Virus record (IMG/VR): IMGVR_UViG_2563366948_000001
Span: 1-18,745 of that record
Reading direction: 5' to 3' (one strand)
Length of the DNA stretch: 18,745 nt
From: a virus
Taxonomy: Duplodnaviria; Heunggongvirae; Uroviricota; Caudoviricetes
A program made the position numbers and the translations under genes. Position 1 is the first letter of the stretch, and each line of letters starts with the position of its first letter. Positions 1 through 13,012 of the stretch are shown here, piece after piece. Below the pieces are notes generated by a model, which was not told the origin of the DNA, did no database searches, and worked only from the letters and a program-made list of their open reading frames with translations.

Positions 1-1284
1 TTACTTCTTCGCCTCTGCAACCACTTTACTACCCACGCCGCGGTTATTGTATTCCCACATGCGGTTGTAGTTAGTGTCATTCAGATTGCGCTGTATTTCG
101 TCGTTATCATCTACGCTGCCGGTATTACCCGCAAACGGACGATTAGAGATCACCGCATCGGCCCACGGTTTAGCCGTGTTAAAACCTTCGTTGATGGCGC
201 TATCACGGATCACCACCTGACCGTTGGTATTGGCATCAACATCCAGCGAGCGGCCCAGTTGCGCCACACCATCACCGAAAGCATTGAAACGGCTGTTTAC
301 GGCGAGGAAACCGTAGTAAATGTTGGACAGCGTAGCCGGTGCAAACACATACGCTTCTTGCTGAGTACGTGAGTTCACCACGCGGAATTCGGTGTTATCG
401 AACACCACTGCGCCGCGACCAGAAACGATATCCACATCCCCTTCAATGTAGCTGTTGGTCACCAGCGTACGCGGCTGACGATTTGTTTCCAGACGGTTCT
501 GCACACCGCTGTTGGTGACAAAGAAGGTGTTCTGACGACCGAGAATGTTAACGTTGTTAATCTGTACCTGGTCACCATCAGTACGCAGTGCCACCGCCGG
601 ATGGTTACCTGCATCTACGCTATCGCCCAGCGTGTTTTCGATGGTCAGATTTTGCAGTTGCAGGCCATTGTTTTGTGACCAGAAGACCGCAGAGCAGAGA
701 ACACCGATACTGTCGCTGCGTTTGCTCTGGCAGCTATCGTACATATACCACGCTGGTTTACCTGGCATATATTTGCCGCGCGGGTTGACGTCGTGACGCC
801 AGTCGGCAGGGCTCATGCCACCATCAAGGGAAAGCCCAATCTTCACATCAATCGGTTTTTCACCTGTACCGTACAGAGTAATTCCACCCGGAGCGGCAGG
901 GACATATACCGTTCCCTGATACTCACCAGGCATCACGGCAATATACTGGCGCTTGTTGGTACGCTTGATAATTGCCGCATCTACCGCCGCCTGAATCGTG
1001 GTATGCGTTACACCTTGAGTGCCCGCCGGGCCGACAACAAAGTCAGGTTGCGCAGGCAGGGTAATCGGGGAAGGATTCCACGCTGCAGCACCTGGTGTCA
1101 GGGATGCAAAATAGTGTTGAGCATCGAAATTCTGCGCTTCTTTTGCCGACAGAATCGGGCGAGAAGAGGTACCAGGCGCGGTTTGATCAGAAGGACGTTG
1201 ATCGGGCGGGGTTGAGCTACAGGCGGTCAGCGTCACGCCAAAAGCCAATGCCAGCGCCAGACGGGAAACTGAAAATGTGTTCAC
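1..1284 (-). CDS. ybhC: YbhC-like outer-membrane lipoprotein (pectinesterase-family, putative acyl-CoA thioesterase); host gene flanking attB-lambda
   Basis: 427-aa ORF in track; N-terminal signal with lipobox (LTAC); sequence recognised as E. coli YbhC; start codon appears to be GTG. Confidence 0.8.
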   Translation of the reverse strand: MNTFSVSRLALALAFGVTLTACSSTPPDQRPSDQTAPGTSSRPILSAKEAQNFDAQHYFASLTPGAAAWNPSPITLPAQPDFVVGPAGTQGVTHTTIQAAVDAAIIKRTNKRQYIAVMPGEYQGTVYVPAAPGGITLYGTGEKPIDVKIGLSLDGGMSPADWRHDVNPRGKYMPGKPAWYMYDSCQSKRSDSIGVLCSAVFWSQNNGLQLQNLTIENTLGDSVDAGNHPAVALRTDGDQVQINNVNILGRQNTFFVTNSGVQNRLETNRQPRTLVTNSYIEGDVDIVSGRGAVVFDNTEFRVVNSRTQQEAYVFAPATLSNIYYGFLAVNSRFNAFGDGVAQLGRSLDVDANTNGQVVIRDSAINEGFNTAKPWADAVISNRPFAGNTGSVDDNDEIQRNLNDTNYNRMWEYNNRGVGSKVVAEAKK

Positions 1285-1330
1285 AGGTTGCTCCGGGCTA
1301 TGAAATAGAAAAATGAATCCGTTGAAGCCT

Positions 1331-1345
1331 GCTTTTTTATACTAA
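1331..1345. other. attL: lambda att common core (GCTTTTTTATACTAA) = attL crossover site
   Basis: Exact 15-bp lambda core between the ybhC start and int; bacterial arm to the left, phage P' arm to the right. Confidence 0.9.
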
Positions 1346-1418
1346 GTTGGCATTATAAAAAAGCATTGCTTATCAATTTGTTGCAACGAACAGGTCACTA
1401 TCAGTCAAAATAAAATCA
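1346..1418. promoter_or_regulatory. attP P' arm with Int arm-type and IHF binding sites
   Basis: Sequence GTTGGCATTATAAAAAAGCATTGCTTATCAATTTGTTGCAACGAACAGGTCACTATCAGTCAAAATAAAATCATTATTTG matches the lambda P' arm as I recall it. Confidence 0.75.
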
Positions 1419-2489
1419 TTATTTGATTTCAATTTTGTCCCACTCCCTGCCTCTGTCATCACGATACTGTGATGCCATGGTGTCCGACTTATGCCCGAGA
1501 AGATGTTGAGCAAACTTATCGCTTATCTGCTTCTCATAGAGTCTTGCAGACAAACTGCGCAACTCGTGAAAGGTAGGCGGATCCCCTTCGAAGGAAAGAC
1601 CTGATGCTTTTCGTGCGCGCATAAAATACCTTGATACTGTGCCGGATGAAAGCGGTTCACGACGAGTAGATGCAATTATGGTTTCTCCGCCAAGAATCTC
1701 TTTGCATTTATCAAGTGTTTCCTTCATTGATATCCCGAGAGCATCAACATGCAATGTTGTTGGGATGGCAATTTTTACGCCTGTTTTGCTTTGCTCGACA
1801 TAAAGATATCCATCTACGATATCAGACCACTTCATTTCGCATAAATCACCAACTCGTTGCCCGGTAACAACAGCCAGTTCCATTGCAAGTCTGAGCCAAC
1901 ATGGTGATGATTCTGCTGCTTGATAAATTTTCAGGTATTCGTCAGCCGTAAGTCTTGATCTCCTTACCTCTGATTTTGCTGCGCGAGTGGCAGCGACAGG
2001 GTTTGTTGTTATATGGCCTTCAGCTATTGCCTCTCGGAATGCATCGCTCAGTGTTGATCTGATTAACTTGGCTGACGCCGCCTTGCCCTCGTCTATGTAT
2101 CCATTGAGCATTGCCGCAATTTCTTTTGTGGTGATGTCTTCAAGTGGAGCATCAGGCAGACCCCTCCTTATTGCTTTAATTTTGCTCATGTAATTTATGA
2201 GTGTCTTCTGCTTGATTCCTCTGCTGGCCAGGATTTTTTCGTAGCGATCAAGCCATGAATGTAACGTAACGGAATTATCACTGTTGATTCTCGCTGTCAG
2301 AGGCTTGTGTTTGTGTCCTGAAAATAACTCAATGTTGGCCTGTATAGCTTCAGTGATTGCGATTCGCCTGTCTCGGCCTAATCCAAACTCTTTACCCGTC
2401 CTTGGGTCCCTGTAGCAGTAATATCCATTGTTTCTTATATAAAGGTTAGGGGGTAAATCCCGGCGCTCATGACTTCGCCTTCTTCCCAT
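1419..2489 (-). CDS. int: Lambda integrase (tyrosine recombinase)
   Basis: 356 aa beginning MGRRRSHERRDLPPNLYIRNNGYYCYRDPRTGKEF, recognised as lambda Int; adjacent to attL. Confidence 0.95.
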   Translation of the reverse strand: MGRRRSHERRDLPPNLYIRNNGYYCYRDPRTGKEFGLGRDRRIAITEAIQANIELFSGHKHKPLTARINSDNSVTLHSWLDRYEKILASRGIKQKTLINYMSKIKAIRRGLPDAPLEDITTKEIAAMLNGYIDEGKAASAKLIRSTLSDAFREAIAEGHITTNPVAATRAAKSEVRRSRLTADEYLKIYQAAESSPCWLRLAMELAVVTGQRVGDLCEMKWSDIVDGYLYVEQSKTGVKIAIPTTLHVDALGISMKETLDKCKEILGGETIIASTRREPLSSGTVSRYFMRARKASGLSFEGDPPTFHELRSLSARLYEKQISDKFAQHLLGHKSDTMASQYRDDRGREWDKIEIK

Positions 2490-2685
2490 TTCTGATCCTC
2501 TTCAAAAGGCTACCTGTTACTGGTCGATTTAAGTCAACCTTTACCGCTGATTCGTGGAACAGATATTCTCTTCCATCCTTAACCGGAGGAGGGAATATCC
2601 TGCACTCGCGTACCCATCGACGAACTGTTTCAAGGCTTCTTGGGCGTCGTTGGCGTGCGTTCCACTCCTGAAGTGTCAAGTACAT
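2467..2685 (-). CDS. xis: Lambda excisionase
   Basis: 72 aa MYLTLQEWNARQRRPRSLETVRRWVRECRIFPPP..., recognised as lambda Xis; 3' end overlaps int start as in lambda. Confidence 0.9.
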   Translation of the reverse strand: MYLTLQEWNARQRRPRSLETVRRWVRECRIFPPPVKDGREYLFHESAVKVDLNRPVTGSLLKRIRNGKKAKS

Positions 2686-2798
2686 CGCAAAGTCTCCGCA
2701 ATTACACGCAAGAAAAAACCGCCATCAGGCGGCTTGGTGTTCTTTCAGTTCTTCAATTCGAATATTGGTTACATTGTTTTCATATATGAATAAATAAA

Positions 2799-2978
2799 TT
2801 AGCTTTTTTCGTTGCCTTCGCGTTCTTTATTAATTTTGACAAACTTGTTTTTACCACGCTCTCCAAATGCGTCTTTAGAGTCGTTGTATCCGCAATCGCA
2901 GCACACATAATCACCAGACCATCCACGCATTGTTTTTTCTTTTGCAATATTTCCAGAACCGCATTTTGGACAAGACAT
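2799..2978 (-). CDS. Small zinc-ribbon protein (CPKC...CCDC), possibly Ea8.5-like
   Basis: Track ORF 2799-3011 starts at TTG; an internal ATG at 2978 is preceded by a GGAGG Shine-Dalgarno, giving 59 aa MSCPKCGSGN... with two Cys pairs. Confidence 0.5.
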   Translation of the reverse strand: MSCPKCGSGNIAKEKTMRGWSGDYVCCDCGYNDSKDAFGERGKNKFVKINKEREGNEKS

Positions 2979-3074
2979 ATCACTACCTCCAAAGCATGAG
3001 TGAGATGACAACGTAACATTGATTGGAGATTAACAATAGATTGCTGATGTAAAAGATATGTATAAGCTTCGCTT

Positions 3075-3728
3075 TCAAAGTGGAGGCTCTGGTAGCGGCA
3101 TCCAGTGAGTTACGTCATCCAAGATATTTCCTGATAAATACGTGAAAGCTCTATATTTTTTGTAATCAATTGGATTTACAACCCAGTTCCAATATGCGGC
3201 CACGATTTCACCTTGACTAAATGCCAGTAACATTTTGGTGTCTTCCGGCATTCGATCACTACAGCTTATCCAACCACCCGGAGTTACCGGAGAGTTGCCG
3301 CGTTCTTTAATGTGCAAGCGAGGCTCACCATCTTTTGGTTCAGGCCACTGGCGTTCCATGTTGATCTTCAATTTATTTTCCATAGCAGCGGTAATTTCAG
3401 CATCACTGATACCAGCACGGCGCTGTGCATCCCACAACAGAAACTGCATATCAGCCCACTCGCTAAGATCGTCTGGTTCGGCTGCGGCTTCCAGTGCCTC
3501 TTTTGAGAGATGTTTCAGCGGACCAATGGGGCCAACGCAGCCAAATGTGGAGTCAGACCATTTGGCATGCTCGTGGCGAATCTGTTCGCGTTCCAGTGAG
3601 GCGAGAGCGATTTTAAATGCTGTAAGCATGTGTGCTTGATCGTTGTCGAGTCCGAATGGCATTTCATCTCGTGCTGACTCAATACTGGTAATCGTATTTT
3701 GTAGCCATTCTTTGGTAAAAGTGCTCAT
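3075..3728 (-). CDS. Phage protein with MazG-like nucleotide pyrophosphohydrolase-type N-terminal region and DUF551-like C-terminal region
   Basis: 217 aa; central EALEAAAEPDDLSEWADMQFLLWDAQRRAGIS...AMENKLKIN resembles MazG-type helices; C-terminal ...THWMPLPEPP resembles the prophage DUF551 motif; ATGA overlap with upstream ORF. Confidence 0.6.
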   Translation of the reverse strand: MSTFTKEWLQNTITSIESARDEMPFGLDNDQAHMLTAFKIALASLEREQIRHEHAKWSDSTFGCVGPIGPLKHLSKEALEAAAEPDDLSEWADMQFLLWDAQRRAGISDAEITAAMENKLKINMERQWPEPKDGEPRLHIKERGNSPVTPGGWISCSDRMPEDTKMLLAFSQGEIVAAYWNWVVNPIDYKKYRAFTYLSGNILDDVTHWMPLPEPPL

Positions 3729-9207: not shown

Positions 9208-9490
9208 TTTGAGAAAAGCAGCGCGTGGTCGGGAATGCCAGGTAAGAATCCCTGGCGTATGTAATGGCAACCCTGAAACGTCTGTACTGGCACATATCCG
9301 GCTGACTGGATTGTGCGGCACCGGTACGAAACCGCCAGACCTGATTGCCACCATTGCATGTTCTGCCTGCCACGACGAAATCGACCGCCGCACGCATTTT
9401 GTTGACGCTGGATATGCAAAAGAATGCGCGCTGGAAGGTATGGCGAGAACACAGGTTATCTGGCTGAAAGAGGGGGTTATTAAGGCGTGA
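9200..9490 (+). CDS. ybcO: YbcO-like nin-region protein (Cys-rich, putative metal-binding nuclease-like)
   Basis: 96 aa from ATG at 9200 preceded by AGGAGG; [37 protein letters not shown]...; track ORF extends upstream without a Shine-Dalgarno. Confidence 0.75.
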
Positions 9491-9849
9491 ATACCTACAG
9501 CATCACATTACCCTGGCCTCCGAGCAATAATCGCTATTACCGCCATAATCGCGGGCGCACGCACGTCAGCGCAGAGGGGCAGGCATACCGCGATAACGTC
9601 GCCCGAATCATTAAAAACGCAATGCTGGATATCGGCCTGGCTATGCCTGTGAAAATCCGCATTGAGTGCCACATGCCGGATCGCCGTCGCCGTGACCTGG
9701 ATAATCTGCAAAAAGCCGCTTTTGACGCACTCACTAAAGCAGGTTTCTGGCTGGATGATGCTCAGGTCGTTGATTACCGCGTTGTGAAGATGCCGGTTGT
9801 CAAAGGTGGAAAGCTGGAGCTGACCATCACTGAACTGGGAGATGAATGA
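9487..9849 (+). CDS. rusA: RusA Holliday-junction resolvase
   Basis: 120 aa [42 protein letters not shown]..., recognised as RusA. Confidence 0.9.
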
Positions 9850-9986
9850 TGTTTGAGTTTTATATGGCAGAACTTCTTCGCCACCGCTGGGGGCGTCTGC
9901 GCTTATATCGTTTCCCCGGTTCTGTTTTGACCGATTACCGAATACTGAAGAATTACGCCAAAACCCTGACAGGAGCAGGAGTATGA
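9846..9986 (+). CDS. ylcG: YlcG-like small protein
   Basis: 46 aa [46 protein letters not shown]; start overlaps rusA stop. Confidence 0.55.
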
Positions 9987-10071
9987 AGTCAGAGATAACA
10001 ATCAACTAATACTGTTTCGTTGATTTTTGCTTGTAATTGGCGTTCTGGTCTGATTTTTGTGGAGTAAGTTG

Positions 10072-10455
10072 ATGCGTGATATTCAGATGGTTCTTGAGCG
10101 TTGGGGAGCGTGGGCGGCTAATAATCATGAAGATGTGACCTGGTCGTCCATTGCCGCCGGTTTTAAGGGATTAATTACTTCAAAAGTAAAATCTCGCCCG
10201 CAATGTTGTGACGATGACGCGATGATCATTTGCGGGTGCATGGCCCGTCTGAAAAAGAACAACAGCGATTTGCACGATTTATTAGTAGATTATTATGTAG
10301 TCGGTATGACATTCATGTCACTGGCAGGTAAGCATTGCTGCTCTGATGGTTATATCGGGAAAAGGTTACAGAAGGCTGAGGGCATAATTGAAGGGATGTT
10401 AATGGCATTAGATATCCGGTTAGAGATGGATATCGTTGTTAATAACTCTAATTAA
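10072..10455 (+). CDS. quuD: Late-gene antiterminator Q (DLP12 QuuD / phage-21-type Q)
   Basis: 127 aa [34 protein letters not shown]... with Cys-rich zinc-binding region; GGAG Shine-Dalgarno; track ORF starts at an upstream TTG. Confidence 0.85.
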
Positions 10456-10469
10456 TATGCCAATTGTTT

Positions 10470-10643
10470 ACTAAAAATTATTAAAAATGGGGCGTTGAAA
10501 CGCCCCCAAAAATAAAGGGTAATATATAACAGAAGGTTTATATAGTTAGAAGCAAGGTTGTGCTTCTAAAGGAAGTGGCTTGAGGGAGCCACTTATATGT
10601 TGGGGAGGCAAAGCCTCCCACAACATATCTTTTAGTAATCAAA
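10470..10643 (-). ncRNA. Porin gene 3' UTR with three stem-loops plus terminator; candidate IpeX-like regulatory RNA
   Basis: Hairpins at 10548-10565, 10575-10592 and 10602-10618; terminator hairpin GGGGCG-TTGAAA-CGCCCC (10489-10506) followed on the minus strand by ATTTTTAATAATTTTT; in DLP12, ipeX maps between the nmpC stop and its terminator. Confidence 0.35.
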
Positions 10644-11726
10644 TTAGAACTGGTAAACCATACCTACAGCAACGATATCATCGGTAGCAACGCCAGATGC
10701 TTTCGTGAAATCGCTCTTATCAATCAGGTTGATTTTGTAATCAACAAAAGTGGACATATTTTTGTTGAAGTAATAGGTTGCACCTACATCAATATATTCA
10801 ACCAGGTCCTGATCACCCCACGCACCCAAGTCTTTTCCTTTAGATTGCAGGTAAGCAACGGACGGACGCAGACCGAAGTCGAACTGATATTGTGCAACTA
10901 CTTCGAAGTTTTGTGCTTTGTTGGCAATATGGTTATTACCAAAAACAGTCATGTTCTGGGTTTCAGAATAGGTGGTAGCCAGATAGATGTTGTTCGCATC
11001 ATATTTCAGACCAGCTGCCCATACTTCAGCATTTTGACCAGATGCATTCAGGCTGTTGTTACCGTAGATAACCTGATTATTAGTGCGGTCAGATTTAGCA
11101 TAGGTTGCACCTACACCGAATCCTTCATACTCATAAGTAGTGGAGAAACCGAAACCATCACCATTAGCTTCAGTTACGTCAGTGCGGTCATTTTTACCCT
11201 GATACTGAGCAGCAAAGTTCAGACCATCAACCAGACCAAAGAAGTCGTTGTTACGATAAGTTGCAACACCAGTGGTGCGACCAGTCATGAACACATCTGT
11301 TTGGGTCCAGGTATCGCCACCGAATTCTGGCAGAACGTCAGTCCACGCACCGATGTCGTATGCTACACCGTAGTTACGGCCGTAATCGATTGAGCCGTAG
11401 TCACCGAATTTCAGGCCTGCAAATGCAAGACGGGTTTTGTCTTTGGAGGAACCTTGAGATTCAGCGCGGTTGCCTTTGAATTCATATTCCCACTGACCGA
11501 AACCAGTCAGTTGATCGTTGATTTGGGTTTCACCTTTGAAGCCAAGACGGGCATAAGTAGTATCACCATCATCTGCATCATTAGAGGAGAAGTAGTGCTT
11601 AGCATTAACTTTCCCGTACAGATCCAGCTTGTTACTGTCTTTATTATAAATTTCAGCTGCCTGAGCAGACATCGCCATCAGTACTGATGCAGCTACAGCA
11701 GAAATTGCCACTGTTAATTTTTTCAT
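10644..11726 (-). CDS. nmpC: Phage-encoded general porin (OmpC/OmpF family; NmpC/Lc-like), apparently intact
   Basis: 360 aa with signal peptide [23 protein letters not shown], porin N-terminus [16 protein letters not shown] and C-terminal ...VYQF; sits between Q and the lysis genes on the opposite strand. Confidence 0.9.
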
Positions 11727-12154
11727 CGTGAGCCCTTTTTTTTGAACTATTATTAAAAAATGATGTCACTGCGCGATAAATATTCATCTAATCAATGTGA
11801 TTATTTCAAGATGTAAGTTTTGGTTTCTCGTTTGATTTGTGAAGTAGATCTCTATTTTTATCTGAACTTTTTTCTATCGAATCCTATTCATAGCTCTTGG
11901 CTGAATAAAAATAAATCTATTAGCCAATTTATATTAACGGCTGTTATTTATAAGTGCTCTATAATTTGAAGGTTCAATTTAAATCGGCTAAAAATAACAC
12001 TGGAAATTATTTGTTGGTTATTTGTTGAGATTTGCTTATGTATTTGTAGTGGTGTTTTCAATACTCGGTAGCATTCTCGCAAATATCATTTAGTGGTTTA
12101 CGTACGTAAAAAATTGGTTATGCTGTTAAGAGTGGTTACTTCGTCACACAGCTT
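11727..12154 (-). promoter_or_regulatory. AT-rich porin upstream region (promoter or regulator-binding candidate)
   Basis: ~430 bp strongly AT-rich with phased A/T tracts immediately upstream of the porin start; no ORF. Confidence 0.35.
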
Positions 12155-12187
12155 AAACCCGCCGTCGAGCGGGTTTTTCCATTTTTT
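12155..12187 (+). terminator. Candidate intrinsic terminator upstream of the lysis cassette
   Basis: AAACCCGC-CGTCGA-GCGGGTTT hairpin followed by TTCCATTTTTT; position computed from the holin ATG at 12300. Confidence 0.45.
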
Positions 12188-12299
12188 GAGTCTCGATATT
12201 AGCTGATAACCCAATACCTGAGTTATTCACTGACTCCGAGTCTGTTACGTTTCGTAGTATTCCCTCAATTTACACCCGCTTTGTCTGCGAGGTGGGGTT

Positions 12300-12515
12300 A
12301 TGAAATCCATGGATAAGTTAACAACGGGTGTCGCCTATGGCACCTCAGCAGGTAGTGCCGGGTACTGGTTTTTACAGCTGCTAGATAAAGTCACGCCCTC
12401 ACAGTGGGCGGCAATTGGAGTGCTGGGTAGCCTGGTATTTGGCCTGCTGACGTACCTGACAAACCTTTATTTCAAGATTAAAGAAGATAAGCGTAAGGCT
12501 GCGAGAGGTGAATAA
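12300..12515 (+). CDS. essD: Class II pinholin (S21-type) with dual-start motif
   Basis: 71 aa [29 protein letters not shown]...; Met1-Lys-Ser-Met4 dual start typical of S21 antiholin/holin; two TM segments. Confidence 0.9.
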
Positions 12516-13012
12516 TGTCGCCATCATTACGCAAGGCTGTAGCAGCTGCTATTGGTGGTGGGGCTGTTGCCATAGCGTCTGTGCTCATCACTGGTCCGAG
12601 TGGTGACGATGGTCTGGAAGGTGTCAGCTACATACCATATAAAGATATTGTTGGTGTATGGACTGTATGTCACGGGCATACAGGAAAAGACATCATGCTC
12701 GGTAAAACGTATACCAAAGCAGAATGCAAAGCACTCTTGAATAAAGACCTTGCCACTGTCGCCAGACAAATTAACCCGTACATCAAAGTCGATATACCGG
12801 AAACAACGCGCGGCGCTCTTTACTCATTCGTTTACAACGTGGGTGCTGGCAATTTCAGAACATCGACGCTTCTTCGCAAAATAAACCAGGGCGATATCAA
12901 AGGCGCATGTGATCAGCTACGTCGCTGGACATATGCTGGCGGTAAGCAATGGAAAGGTCTCATGACTCGTCGTGAGATTGAGCGTGAAATCTGTTTGTGG
13001 GGTCAGCAATGA
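12515..13012 (+). CDS. rrrD: SAR endolysin (signal-anchor-release lysozyme, R21-type)
   Basis: 165 aa; N-terminal Gly/Ala-rich weakly hydrophobic SAR segment [20 protein letters not shown], then lysozyme domain; start overlaps holin stop. Confidence 0.9.

Follow-up and report, generated by a model that had tools for sequence, protein, structure and literature searches.

IpeX is a 167-nt RNA encoded by the DLP12 prophage; it is co-transcribed with the porin from the porin promoter and arises by processing of a longer precursor (PMC12197685). Phage PA-2 is likewise a location of IpeX (PMC8065619). The RNA represses ompC and ompF (PMC5069750; PMC7177473; PMC8065619) and has been detected in K-12 by RNA-seq (PMC7177473), and the literature also contains RT-qPCR measurements of IpeX in clinical isolates. 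By using the terminator of an upstream coding gene and by being processed from a longer precursor, IpeX resembles the small RNAs that derive from 3′ UTRs (PMC12197685). Here we describe a locus that matches the IpeX loci of DLP12 and PA-2 in its location between a QuuD-type Q gene and an NmpC/Lc-type porin gene, in its strand, hairpins and terminator, and in its sequence, which is 97% identical.

The window, that is, the entire 18,745-nt stretch of viral DNA that was analysed, is a lambdoid prophage segment that carries rusA (9487-9849), the late antiterminator gene Q (10072-10455, plus strand), a reverse-oriented porin gene (10644-11726, minus strand), a 573-bp spacer, an S21-type holin gene (12300-12515, plus strand; Pfam PF04971, E = 2e-35), a lysozyme-family endolysin gene (12515-13012) and further lysis genes. 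The Q product (127 aa; Pfam PF06530, E = 3.5e-53) is of the QuuD type, and the identical gene in RefSeq is named quuD; it is 77% identical to the Q protein of 933W-type Stx phages and 29% identical to Q21, with a PDB match to Q21 at E = 7.6e-7. The porin (360 aa; Pfam Porin_1, E = 3.1e-153) is of the Lc/NmpC type and 90% identical to the Lc porin of PA-2. The differences from Lc cluster, together with indels, at residues ~181-190 and 215-232, which are probably surface loops, and the remainder is nearly identical. The porin gene is intact, as in PA-2, whereas nmpC of K-12 DLP12 is split by IS5 at 58 nt before its stop codon. The porin promoter is expected to drive IpeX and, with the porin gene intact, IpeX can thus be made from this promoter in the present prophage.

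The spacer between the Q stop codon (10453-10455) and the convergent porin stop codon (10644-10646) spans 188 nt (10456-10643). Compared with the spacer between quuD and nmpC in K-12 DLP12 (NC_000913.3 574340-574528), it has 97% identity, with six differences in 189 aligned positions, namely five substitutions and one indel, all of which fall in hairpin loops, in a bulge or in the 5′ flank. In phage PA-2 (J02580), the sequence that follows lc shows 97.3% identity to it. The original prediction had regarded the spacer as a candidate for an IpeX-like regulatory RNA, and the alignment with K-12 DLP12 goes beyond such a likeness: the spacer is almost certainly the ortholog of ipeX of K-12 DLP12 and PA-2, judging from sequence and position. 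Indeed, it lies on the porin strand between the stop codon of an NmpC/Lc-type porin gene and the intrinsic terminator of that gene. A 167-nt RNA that starts directly after the porin stop would end at position 10477, inside the terminator U-tract (10473-10488), and this length therefore fits the anatomy of IpeX. We accordingly place the putative IpeX RNA, a 3′ UTR of the porin mRNA, at 10477-10643 on the minus strand, from the base after the porin stop to the U-tract. The IpeX element itself is already known; that the RNA of this prophage accumulates and lowers OmpC and OmpF would follow by analogy with the K-12 and PA-2 homologs. Taken as a whole, we consider it likely that the locus is best explained by an ipeX identity of the spacer, an RNA processed from the porin 3′ UTR, pairing of this RNA with ompC, and a late promoter that lies elsewhere.

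The spacer contains four strong hairpins and one weak AT hairpin, as located by a search for inverted repeats and with energies computed on the minus-strand RNA. The four stem-loops that had been proposed to lie between the two stop codons are therefore present, with exact coordinates, and are joined by one marginal structure. The first structure past the porin stop is also the longest, hairpin 4 (10595-10628), in which the arms 10595-10605/10618-10628 and the inner arms 10603-10609/10613-10619 combine into one long hairpin of 15 pairs with one bulge and −22.2 kcal/mol on both strands. It is followed on the minus strand by hairpin 3 (10573-10594; −10.4 kcal/mol), with 8 pairs and a CCCUCA loop, and by hairpin 2 (10546-10569; −9.6 kcal/mol), with 8-9 pairs; the underlying repeats, 10573-10580/10587-10594 and 10546-10554/10561-10569, have arms of 8 nt and 9 nt, respectively, and are 100% complementary. 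A weak AT palindrome (10523-10529/10538-10544) forms a hairpin of only −1.3 kcal/mol at 10523-10544. The last element is the predicted intrinsic terminator of the porin and IpeX transcript (10473-10506, minus strand), which consists of a stem at 10489-10506 (−12.5 kcal/mol; arms 10489-10496/10499-10506 of 8 nt, 100% complementary) followed by the U-tract AUUUUUAAUAAUUUUU. The terminator for the porin transcript that had been predicted within the spacer was indeed recovered by the terminator scan, which called 10506 to 10489 on the minus strand with the U-rich tail ATTTTTAATA.

Folding of the minus strand of the spacer yields −69.7 kcal/mol, compared with a mean of −33.9 kcal/mol for shuffled sequences (z = −9.69), and folding of the plus strand yields −71.5 kcal/mol (z = −8.43); on either strand, none of 200 dinucleotide shuffles folded as well. 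The hairpins are thus real and far beyond chance. On the plus strand, hairpin 4 is directly followed by CTTTT, or by TTTTT in K-12, and the two may together act as a weak terminator for transcripts that leave Q, while the terminator scan made no plus-strand call at hairpin 4. No family match was found anywhere in the spacer when positions 9800-12600 were searched with the covariance models of Rfam 15 (E ≤ 1). A Trp_leader match at 12060-12182 from the same search, which scored 20.8 bits where the gathering score is 41, was discarded as chance. Short ORFs within the spacer (26-35 aa) were likewise rejected as coding, since they cross the palindromes, lack a ribosome-binding site and contain frameshifts in some variants.

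Of 5426 complete E. coli genomes, 2504 matched a 301-bp query across the spacer (10400-10700), and the matches listed carry 'quuD' and 'porin OmpC' annotations in every case. Among phages, 36 records contain the spacer, each at least 93.8% identical and each with the same Q and porin, and blastn against the phage collection found no more remote homologs beyond these. In the RefSeq annotation of K-12 (NC_000913.3 574340-574528), micF and micC are annotated but ipeX is not. An element that is present in nearly half of the complete E. coli genomes thus has neither a RefSeq annotation nor an Rfam family, so that automatic annotation would leave it unnamed in thousands of genomes and genome scans would rediscover it time and again.

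Within the 27 distinct variants of the spacer, which are 97% identical, changes are confined to the hairpin loops, to the bulge of hairpin 4 or to A-U to G·U replacements. The loop and the bulge of hairpin 4 vary among relatives but its stem does not, and hairpin 2 carries an A-U to G·U change that keeps the pair in 9 of the 27 variants. The terminator loop varies (UUUC, UCUC or UUGC), and its stem is constant except for one G-C to G·U change in a single variant. This pattern is compatible with structural constraint but is no evidence for it: covariation among the 27 variants gives no support for the hairpins, an analysis that has no power at 97% identity. Two nominally compensatory pairs were rejected because they come from contigs with errors in G/C runs. 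Four IMG/VR contigs (L044, L077, L083 and L084) show clustered A/T-to-G/C changes within the spacer hairpins, which are more suggestive of errors in sequencing or assembly than of real variation and account for the only apparent compensatory pairs.

Convergent genes commonly share hairpin-rich spacers, and the hairpins could therefore be mere punctuation, that is, terminators, REP-like palindromes or 3′-end stabilisers that have no function in trans. The classification of ipeX as REP-containing by one tool (PMC12306157) and the lack of both covariation and an Rfam match would be in keeping with such a role. This reading is nevertheless very improbable, given that the near-identical sequence of K-12 and PA-2 has been published to act in trans on OmpC and OmpF, that the one unstructured segment of the RNA is as invariant as the stems, and that this RNA has a complementarity to ompC that is unlikely to arise by chance, as described below.

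The architecture of the RNA, with three 5′ hairpins, an accessible seed and a terminator with a U-tail, is that of a base-pairing small RNA. The poorly structured part is restricted to IpeX nt 101-135 (10509-10543, minus strand), which includes the AT hairpin and has an opening cost of 3.3-3.6 kcal/mol. The 167-nt IpeX was scanned against the K-12 leaders of ompC, ompF and ompA as well as against the leader of the phage porin itself, using windowed calculations with opening energies; duplex prediction over the whole length of the RNA returned meaningless full-length duplexes and was set aside in favour of the windowed scans. The best interaction with ompC is predicted between exactly this stretch, IpeX nt 101-135, and positions −32 to −2 of the ompC mRNA, and comprises 15+9+3 bp with −26.7 kcal/mol. 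The core helix (10524-10538) consists of 15 contiguous pairs with ompC −21 to −7, in which AACCUUCUGUUAUAU pairs with AUAUAACAGAGGGUU, including one G·U pair, and which lies over the Shine-Dalgarno sequence GAGGG. A second helix (10510-10518) adds nine further pairs between CCUUUAUUU and AAAUAAAGG, and three more pairs follow.

The ungapped ompC helix was reached by 5 of 2000 dinucleotide shuffles and the gapped duplex by 1 of 150, the gapped statistics having been computed for ompC only. An accessible segment of IpeX is thus complementary, beyond chance, to the translation-initiation region of ompC. After opening costs are taken into account, the net energy is −16.7 kcal/mol for ompC and −9.1 kcal/mol for ompF, compared with +4.5 kcal/mol for ompA and +7.0 kcal/mol for the leader of the phage porin. 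The ompF match, in which UAUUACCCUU pairs with GAGGGUAAUA in the Shine-Dalgarno region, is not significant on its own, as it was reached by 511 of 2000 shuffles. The pairing stretch is invariant in all 27 IpeX variants, and the ompC target is at least 99% identical in 5346 of 5426 E. coli genomes. The plus strand of the pairing segment resembles a copy of the ompC leader (AAATAAAGG...ATATAACAGAAGGTT compared with AAAUAAAGGCAUAUAACAGAGGGUU), which suggests capture and inversion of part of a porin leader by the phage.

The predicted interaction is similar to that of MicC and, by analogy, of MicF, the host small RNAs that act on the ompC and ompF leaders. Indeed, when the 5′ end of K-12 MicC was used as a positive control in the same calculation, it gave −26.5 kcal/mol with ompC at an overlapping site (−47 to −14), and the two RNAs share the order of an accessible seed followed by a terminator with a U-tail. 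This contrasts with their overall organization, in that MicC is a free-standing gene with its seed at the 5′ end, whereas IpeX is the 3′ UTR of an mRNA and has an internal seed that follows three hairpins. Unlike MicC, the pairing predicted for IpeX also covers the Shine-Dalgarno sequence of ompC. IpeX nt 114-133 resemble MicC nt 1-16 except for a 4-nt insertion, but this sequence similarity was rejected as evidence of common descent, as it is not significant by itself (222 of 1000 shuffles). That IpeX is a MicC-like antisense RNA in the full sense, with a 27-bp duplex over the ompC Shine-Dalgarno sequence, a shorter match to ompF and an immune phage porin leader, has in our estimate an about even chance of being correct on the strength of these models.

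IpeX has been cited for ~20 years as a porin regulator, the mechanism of which is not known to have been explained and is possibly independent of pairing. The view of a 'novel mechanism' is reportedly that of the original work of Castillo-Keller, Vuong and Misra from 2006. The abstract of Castillo-Keller et al. 2006 reportedly states that the authors detected no complementarity with the ompC leader and, further, that the effect on ompC, although not that on ompF, is independent of Hfq. The pairing model conflicts with this published view, or at least goes beyond it. We note, however, that the longest perfect Watson-Crick run in the IpeX-ompC duplex is 10 nt, broken by one G·U pair, and that the default word size of BLAST is 11, so that a standard similarity search could have missed the ompC match. 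In addition, long duplexes often need Hfq less, and Hfq independence is therefore no argument against pairing; if the Hfq pattern is as reported, it would be compatible with a long duplex on ompC and a short one on ompF.

An alternative is that IpeX acts without base pairing, with its hairpins binding or titrating a protein (ProQ, Hfq or a ribonuclease, for example) or perturbing the fate of porin mRNA indirectly. This would be consistent with the reported lack of complementarity and the reported Hfq independence for ompC, and it would give a role to the three very stable hairpins (−22.2, −10.4 and −9.6 kcal/mol), which have none in the pairing model. IpeX has, moreover, been termed an 'Hfq-independent phage sRNA' (PMC8313858). 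What speaks against such a mode of action is that the 27-bp complementarity to ompC, which matches the MicC-ompC interaction in strength, falls into the sole accessible segment of the RNA, and that an ordinary search could have overlooked the duplex on account of its short perfect run. We therefore regard action without pairing as rather unlikely, albeit with a share of the probability that is not negligible, and favour base pairing with ompC, by some distance short of certainty, as the working mechanism of IpeX.

According to the pairing model, transcription on the minus strand would start at the porin promoter and proceed through the porin gene, the three stable hairpins and the poorly structured stretch of ~35 nt before the transcript ends at hairpin 10489-10506 and its U-tract. 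The 3′ part of this transcript would then accumulate as the ~167-nt IpeX, processed from the longer message as in published work. IpeX would lower the synthesis of OmpC and OmpF, such that a lysogen would swap the host porins for the phage porin. This would be ordinary antisense control, in which the unstructured nt 101-135 pair with ompC −32 to −2, cover the Shine-Dalgarno sequence, overlap the MicC site and so block ribosome binding. The shorter match to the ompF Shine-Dalgarno sequence would explain a weaker effect on OmpF, and the leader of the phage porin, which has no match, would escape. The predicted ompC duplex thereby offers a simple explanation for how a lysogen could replace OmpC by the phage porin while OmpA and the phage porin itself are spared. 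OmpC is itself a phage receptor.

In addition to the regulatory RNA, the original prediction had assigned the Q-dependent late promoter and the Q-utilisation site to the spacer, with the consequence that sense and antisense signals would overlap there. In lambdoid phages these elements form pR′-qut-tR′ cassettes, as in phage 21 and in 933W and Sakai, with lambda 6S and StxS as the associated RNAs. In phage 21, the pR′ cassette is annotated within ~85 bp, starting 7 nt after the Q stop, and comprises a −35 element, two 8-bp Q-binding subsites, a −10 element, the start site, a sigma-dependent pause element and a terminator. The only compact cassette of this post-Q type found in the window is homologous to that of Stx phages and lies at 12097-12187 on the plus strand, 1.65 kb downstream of the spacer, past the porin promoter region and 113 nt upstream of the holin gene. 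In contrast to the known lambdoid arrangement, it is separated from Q by the porin-IpeX unit.

The cassette is homologous to pR′ and the first hairpin in Stx phages of the 933W type. With the porin-holin spacer as the query, blastn matched 362 phage records in all, and within this query positions 12096-12178 are ~78% identical to sequence at the Q end in hundreds of Stx phages; in phage 06-3462, the homologous sequence is annotated as the pR′ promoter and terminator. Alignment to phage 06-3462 places a putative −35 element, TTTACG, at 12097-12102 and, with a spacing of 16 nt, a −10 element, TATGCT, at 12119-12124 (plus strand). A conserved 13-nt motif, TAAGAGTGGTTAC, follows at 12127-12139 (plus strand), and a hairpin with subsequent T-runs was called by the terminator scan at 12155-12176 (plus strand). 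The start of the pR′ transcript in Stx phages was mapped by dRNA-seq to 258 nt upstream of the 3′ end of tR′ (Sy et al., PMC7547250). In Sakai Sp5, the base 258 nt upstream of the final T in the second terminator is an A that lies 7 nt after the −10 element, and by homology with Sp5 the late start site in the window would be position 12131 on the plus strand, which corresponds to 577,229 in K-12. The S21-type holin gene would be the first late gene served by this promoter.

The motif TAAGAGTGGTTAC provides a marker for the position of the cassette in related phages. It occurs once per locus and is absent from the Q-porin spacer in every locus examined; in 73 of 80 viral contigs that share an identical Q, it follows the Q stop at a distance of ~1670-1690 nt. 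In the Stx phage it is located 18 nt past the Q stop and in PhiR55_1 627 nt past it, the latter having the order Q, a reverse-oriented gene and then the cassette. The spacer, on the other hand, follows the porin. In phages that have an 85%-identical Q but no porin, the spacer is absent, homology ends ~24 nt before the Q stop and a different promoter-terminator cassette takes the place of the spacer. The presence of the spacer with the porin, and its absence without it, indicate that it belongs to the porin unit and not to Q. Together with the homology of 12097-12187 to the Stx pR′ cassette, this argues that porin and IpeX form an insert, in reverse orientation, which separates Q from its promoter. 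Consistently, reporter work has placed the regulatory region of the DLP12 lysis operon upstream of essD (PMC7918800). The late promoter thus very probably lies at 12097-12187 rather than in the spacer, as far as can be judged from homology, and neither its assignment to the spacer nor the proposed overlap of sense and antisense signals is borne out.

A composite arrangement, in which the minus-strand RNA from the porin 3′ UTR would share the spacer with a plus-strand late promoter, a Q-utilisation site and an early terminator, and in which late transcription would run antisense through the porin gene, can be motivated by the promoter-terminator cassettes found ~20-130 nt after Q in phage 21, in 933W-type Stx phages and in ev087-type phages. 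By eye, a weak sigma-70-like match is present at 10457-10484 (ATGCCA-16-TATTAA, 8 of 12), which equals the score of the homologous pR′, and hairpin 4 with its CTTTT could serve as the plus-strand terminator. However, the counterpart of the pR′ that has been mapped for the nearest characterised relatives of this Q is the cassette at 12097-12187, the spacer shares no sequence with any of the Q-proximal cassettes examined, and it occurs only together with the porin, being replaced entirely in the no-porin phages with an 85%-identical Q. When the ev087-type post-Q cassette was compared with the whole window, chance words only were found. With the reporter work on DLP12 also pointing upstream of essD, we consider the composite arrangement hardly credible. 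A scan for consensus promoters (at least 9 of 12) found no site in the spacer, but this threshold also misses the homologous pR′ (8 of 12), and the scan is therefore uninformative in either direction with regard to a spacer promoter.

With the late promoter at 12097-12187, that of DLP12/PA-2-type prophages would be located downstream of the porin-IpeX unit and not beside Q. Q-dependent late transcription would thus not cross the porin gene in antisense direction, and in the lysogen the porin and IpeX could be expressed independently of late transcription. The cassette also predicts a constitutive short RNA from ~12131; its counterpart in Stx phages, transcribed from the homologous promoter, becomes the regulatory small RNA StxS. 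In Sakai, the hairpin homologous to 12155-12176 is apparently read through, and the short RNA of 258 nt ends at the second terminator, which makes the strength of 12155-12176 as a late terminator uncertain. No second predicted terminator is found in the window between this hairpin and the holin gene. In the Sakai Sp5 sequence (L168), the homologous hairpin and T-run lie at 770-796 and the second terminator at 975-1003.

Several further observations concern the region downstream of Q. In PhiR55_1 (L167; 240-1283), a reverse ORF is located between Q and the Stx-like cassette, and in Lambda_ev087 (L004; 2573-3631), Q is followed by a different promoter-terminator cassette and then by a lipocalin gene (blc) in reverse orientation. 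Reverse-oriented accessory genes thus recur beside this type of Q, and the junction between Q and pR′ appears to be a favoured site for their insertion. In the contigs with an 85%-identical Q (L086-L165), the region ~12-130 nt past the Q stop contains a conserved TTGCTG-17-TAACAT, a TGGAAT and a terminator, the stem of which resembles that of Stx tR′. One of these contigs (L094) continues with unrelated sequence directly after the TGGAAT, a switch that suggests a module boundary. Lastly, a tandem direct repeat (TTATTTGTTGG / TTATTTGTTGA) is present at 12007-12028 on the plus strand of the window, between the porin promoter region and the late cassette.
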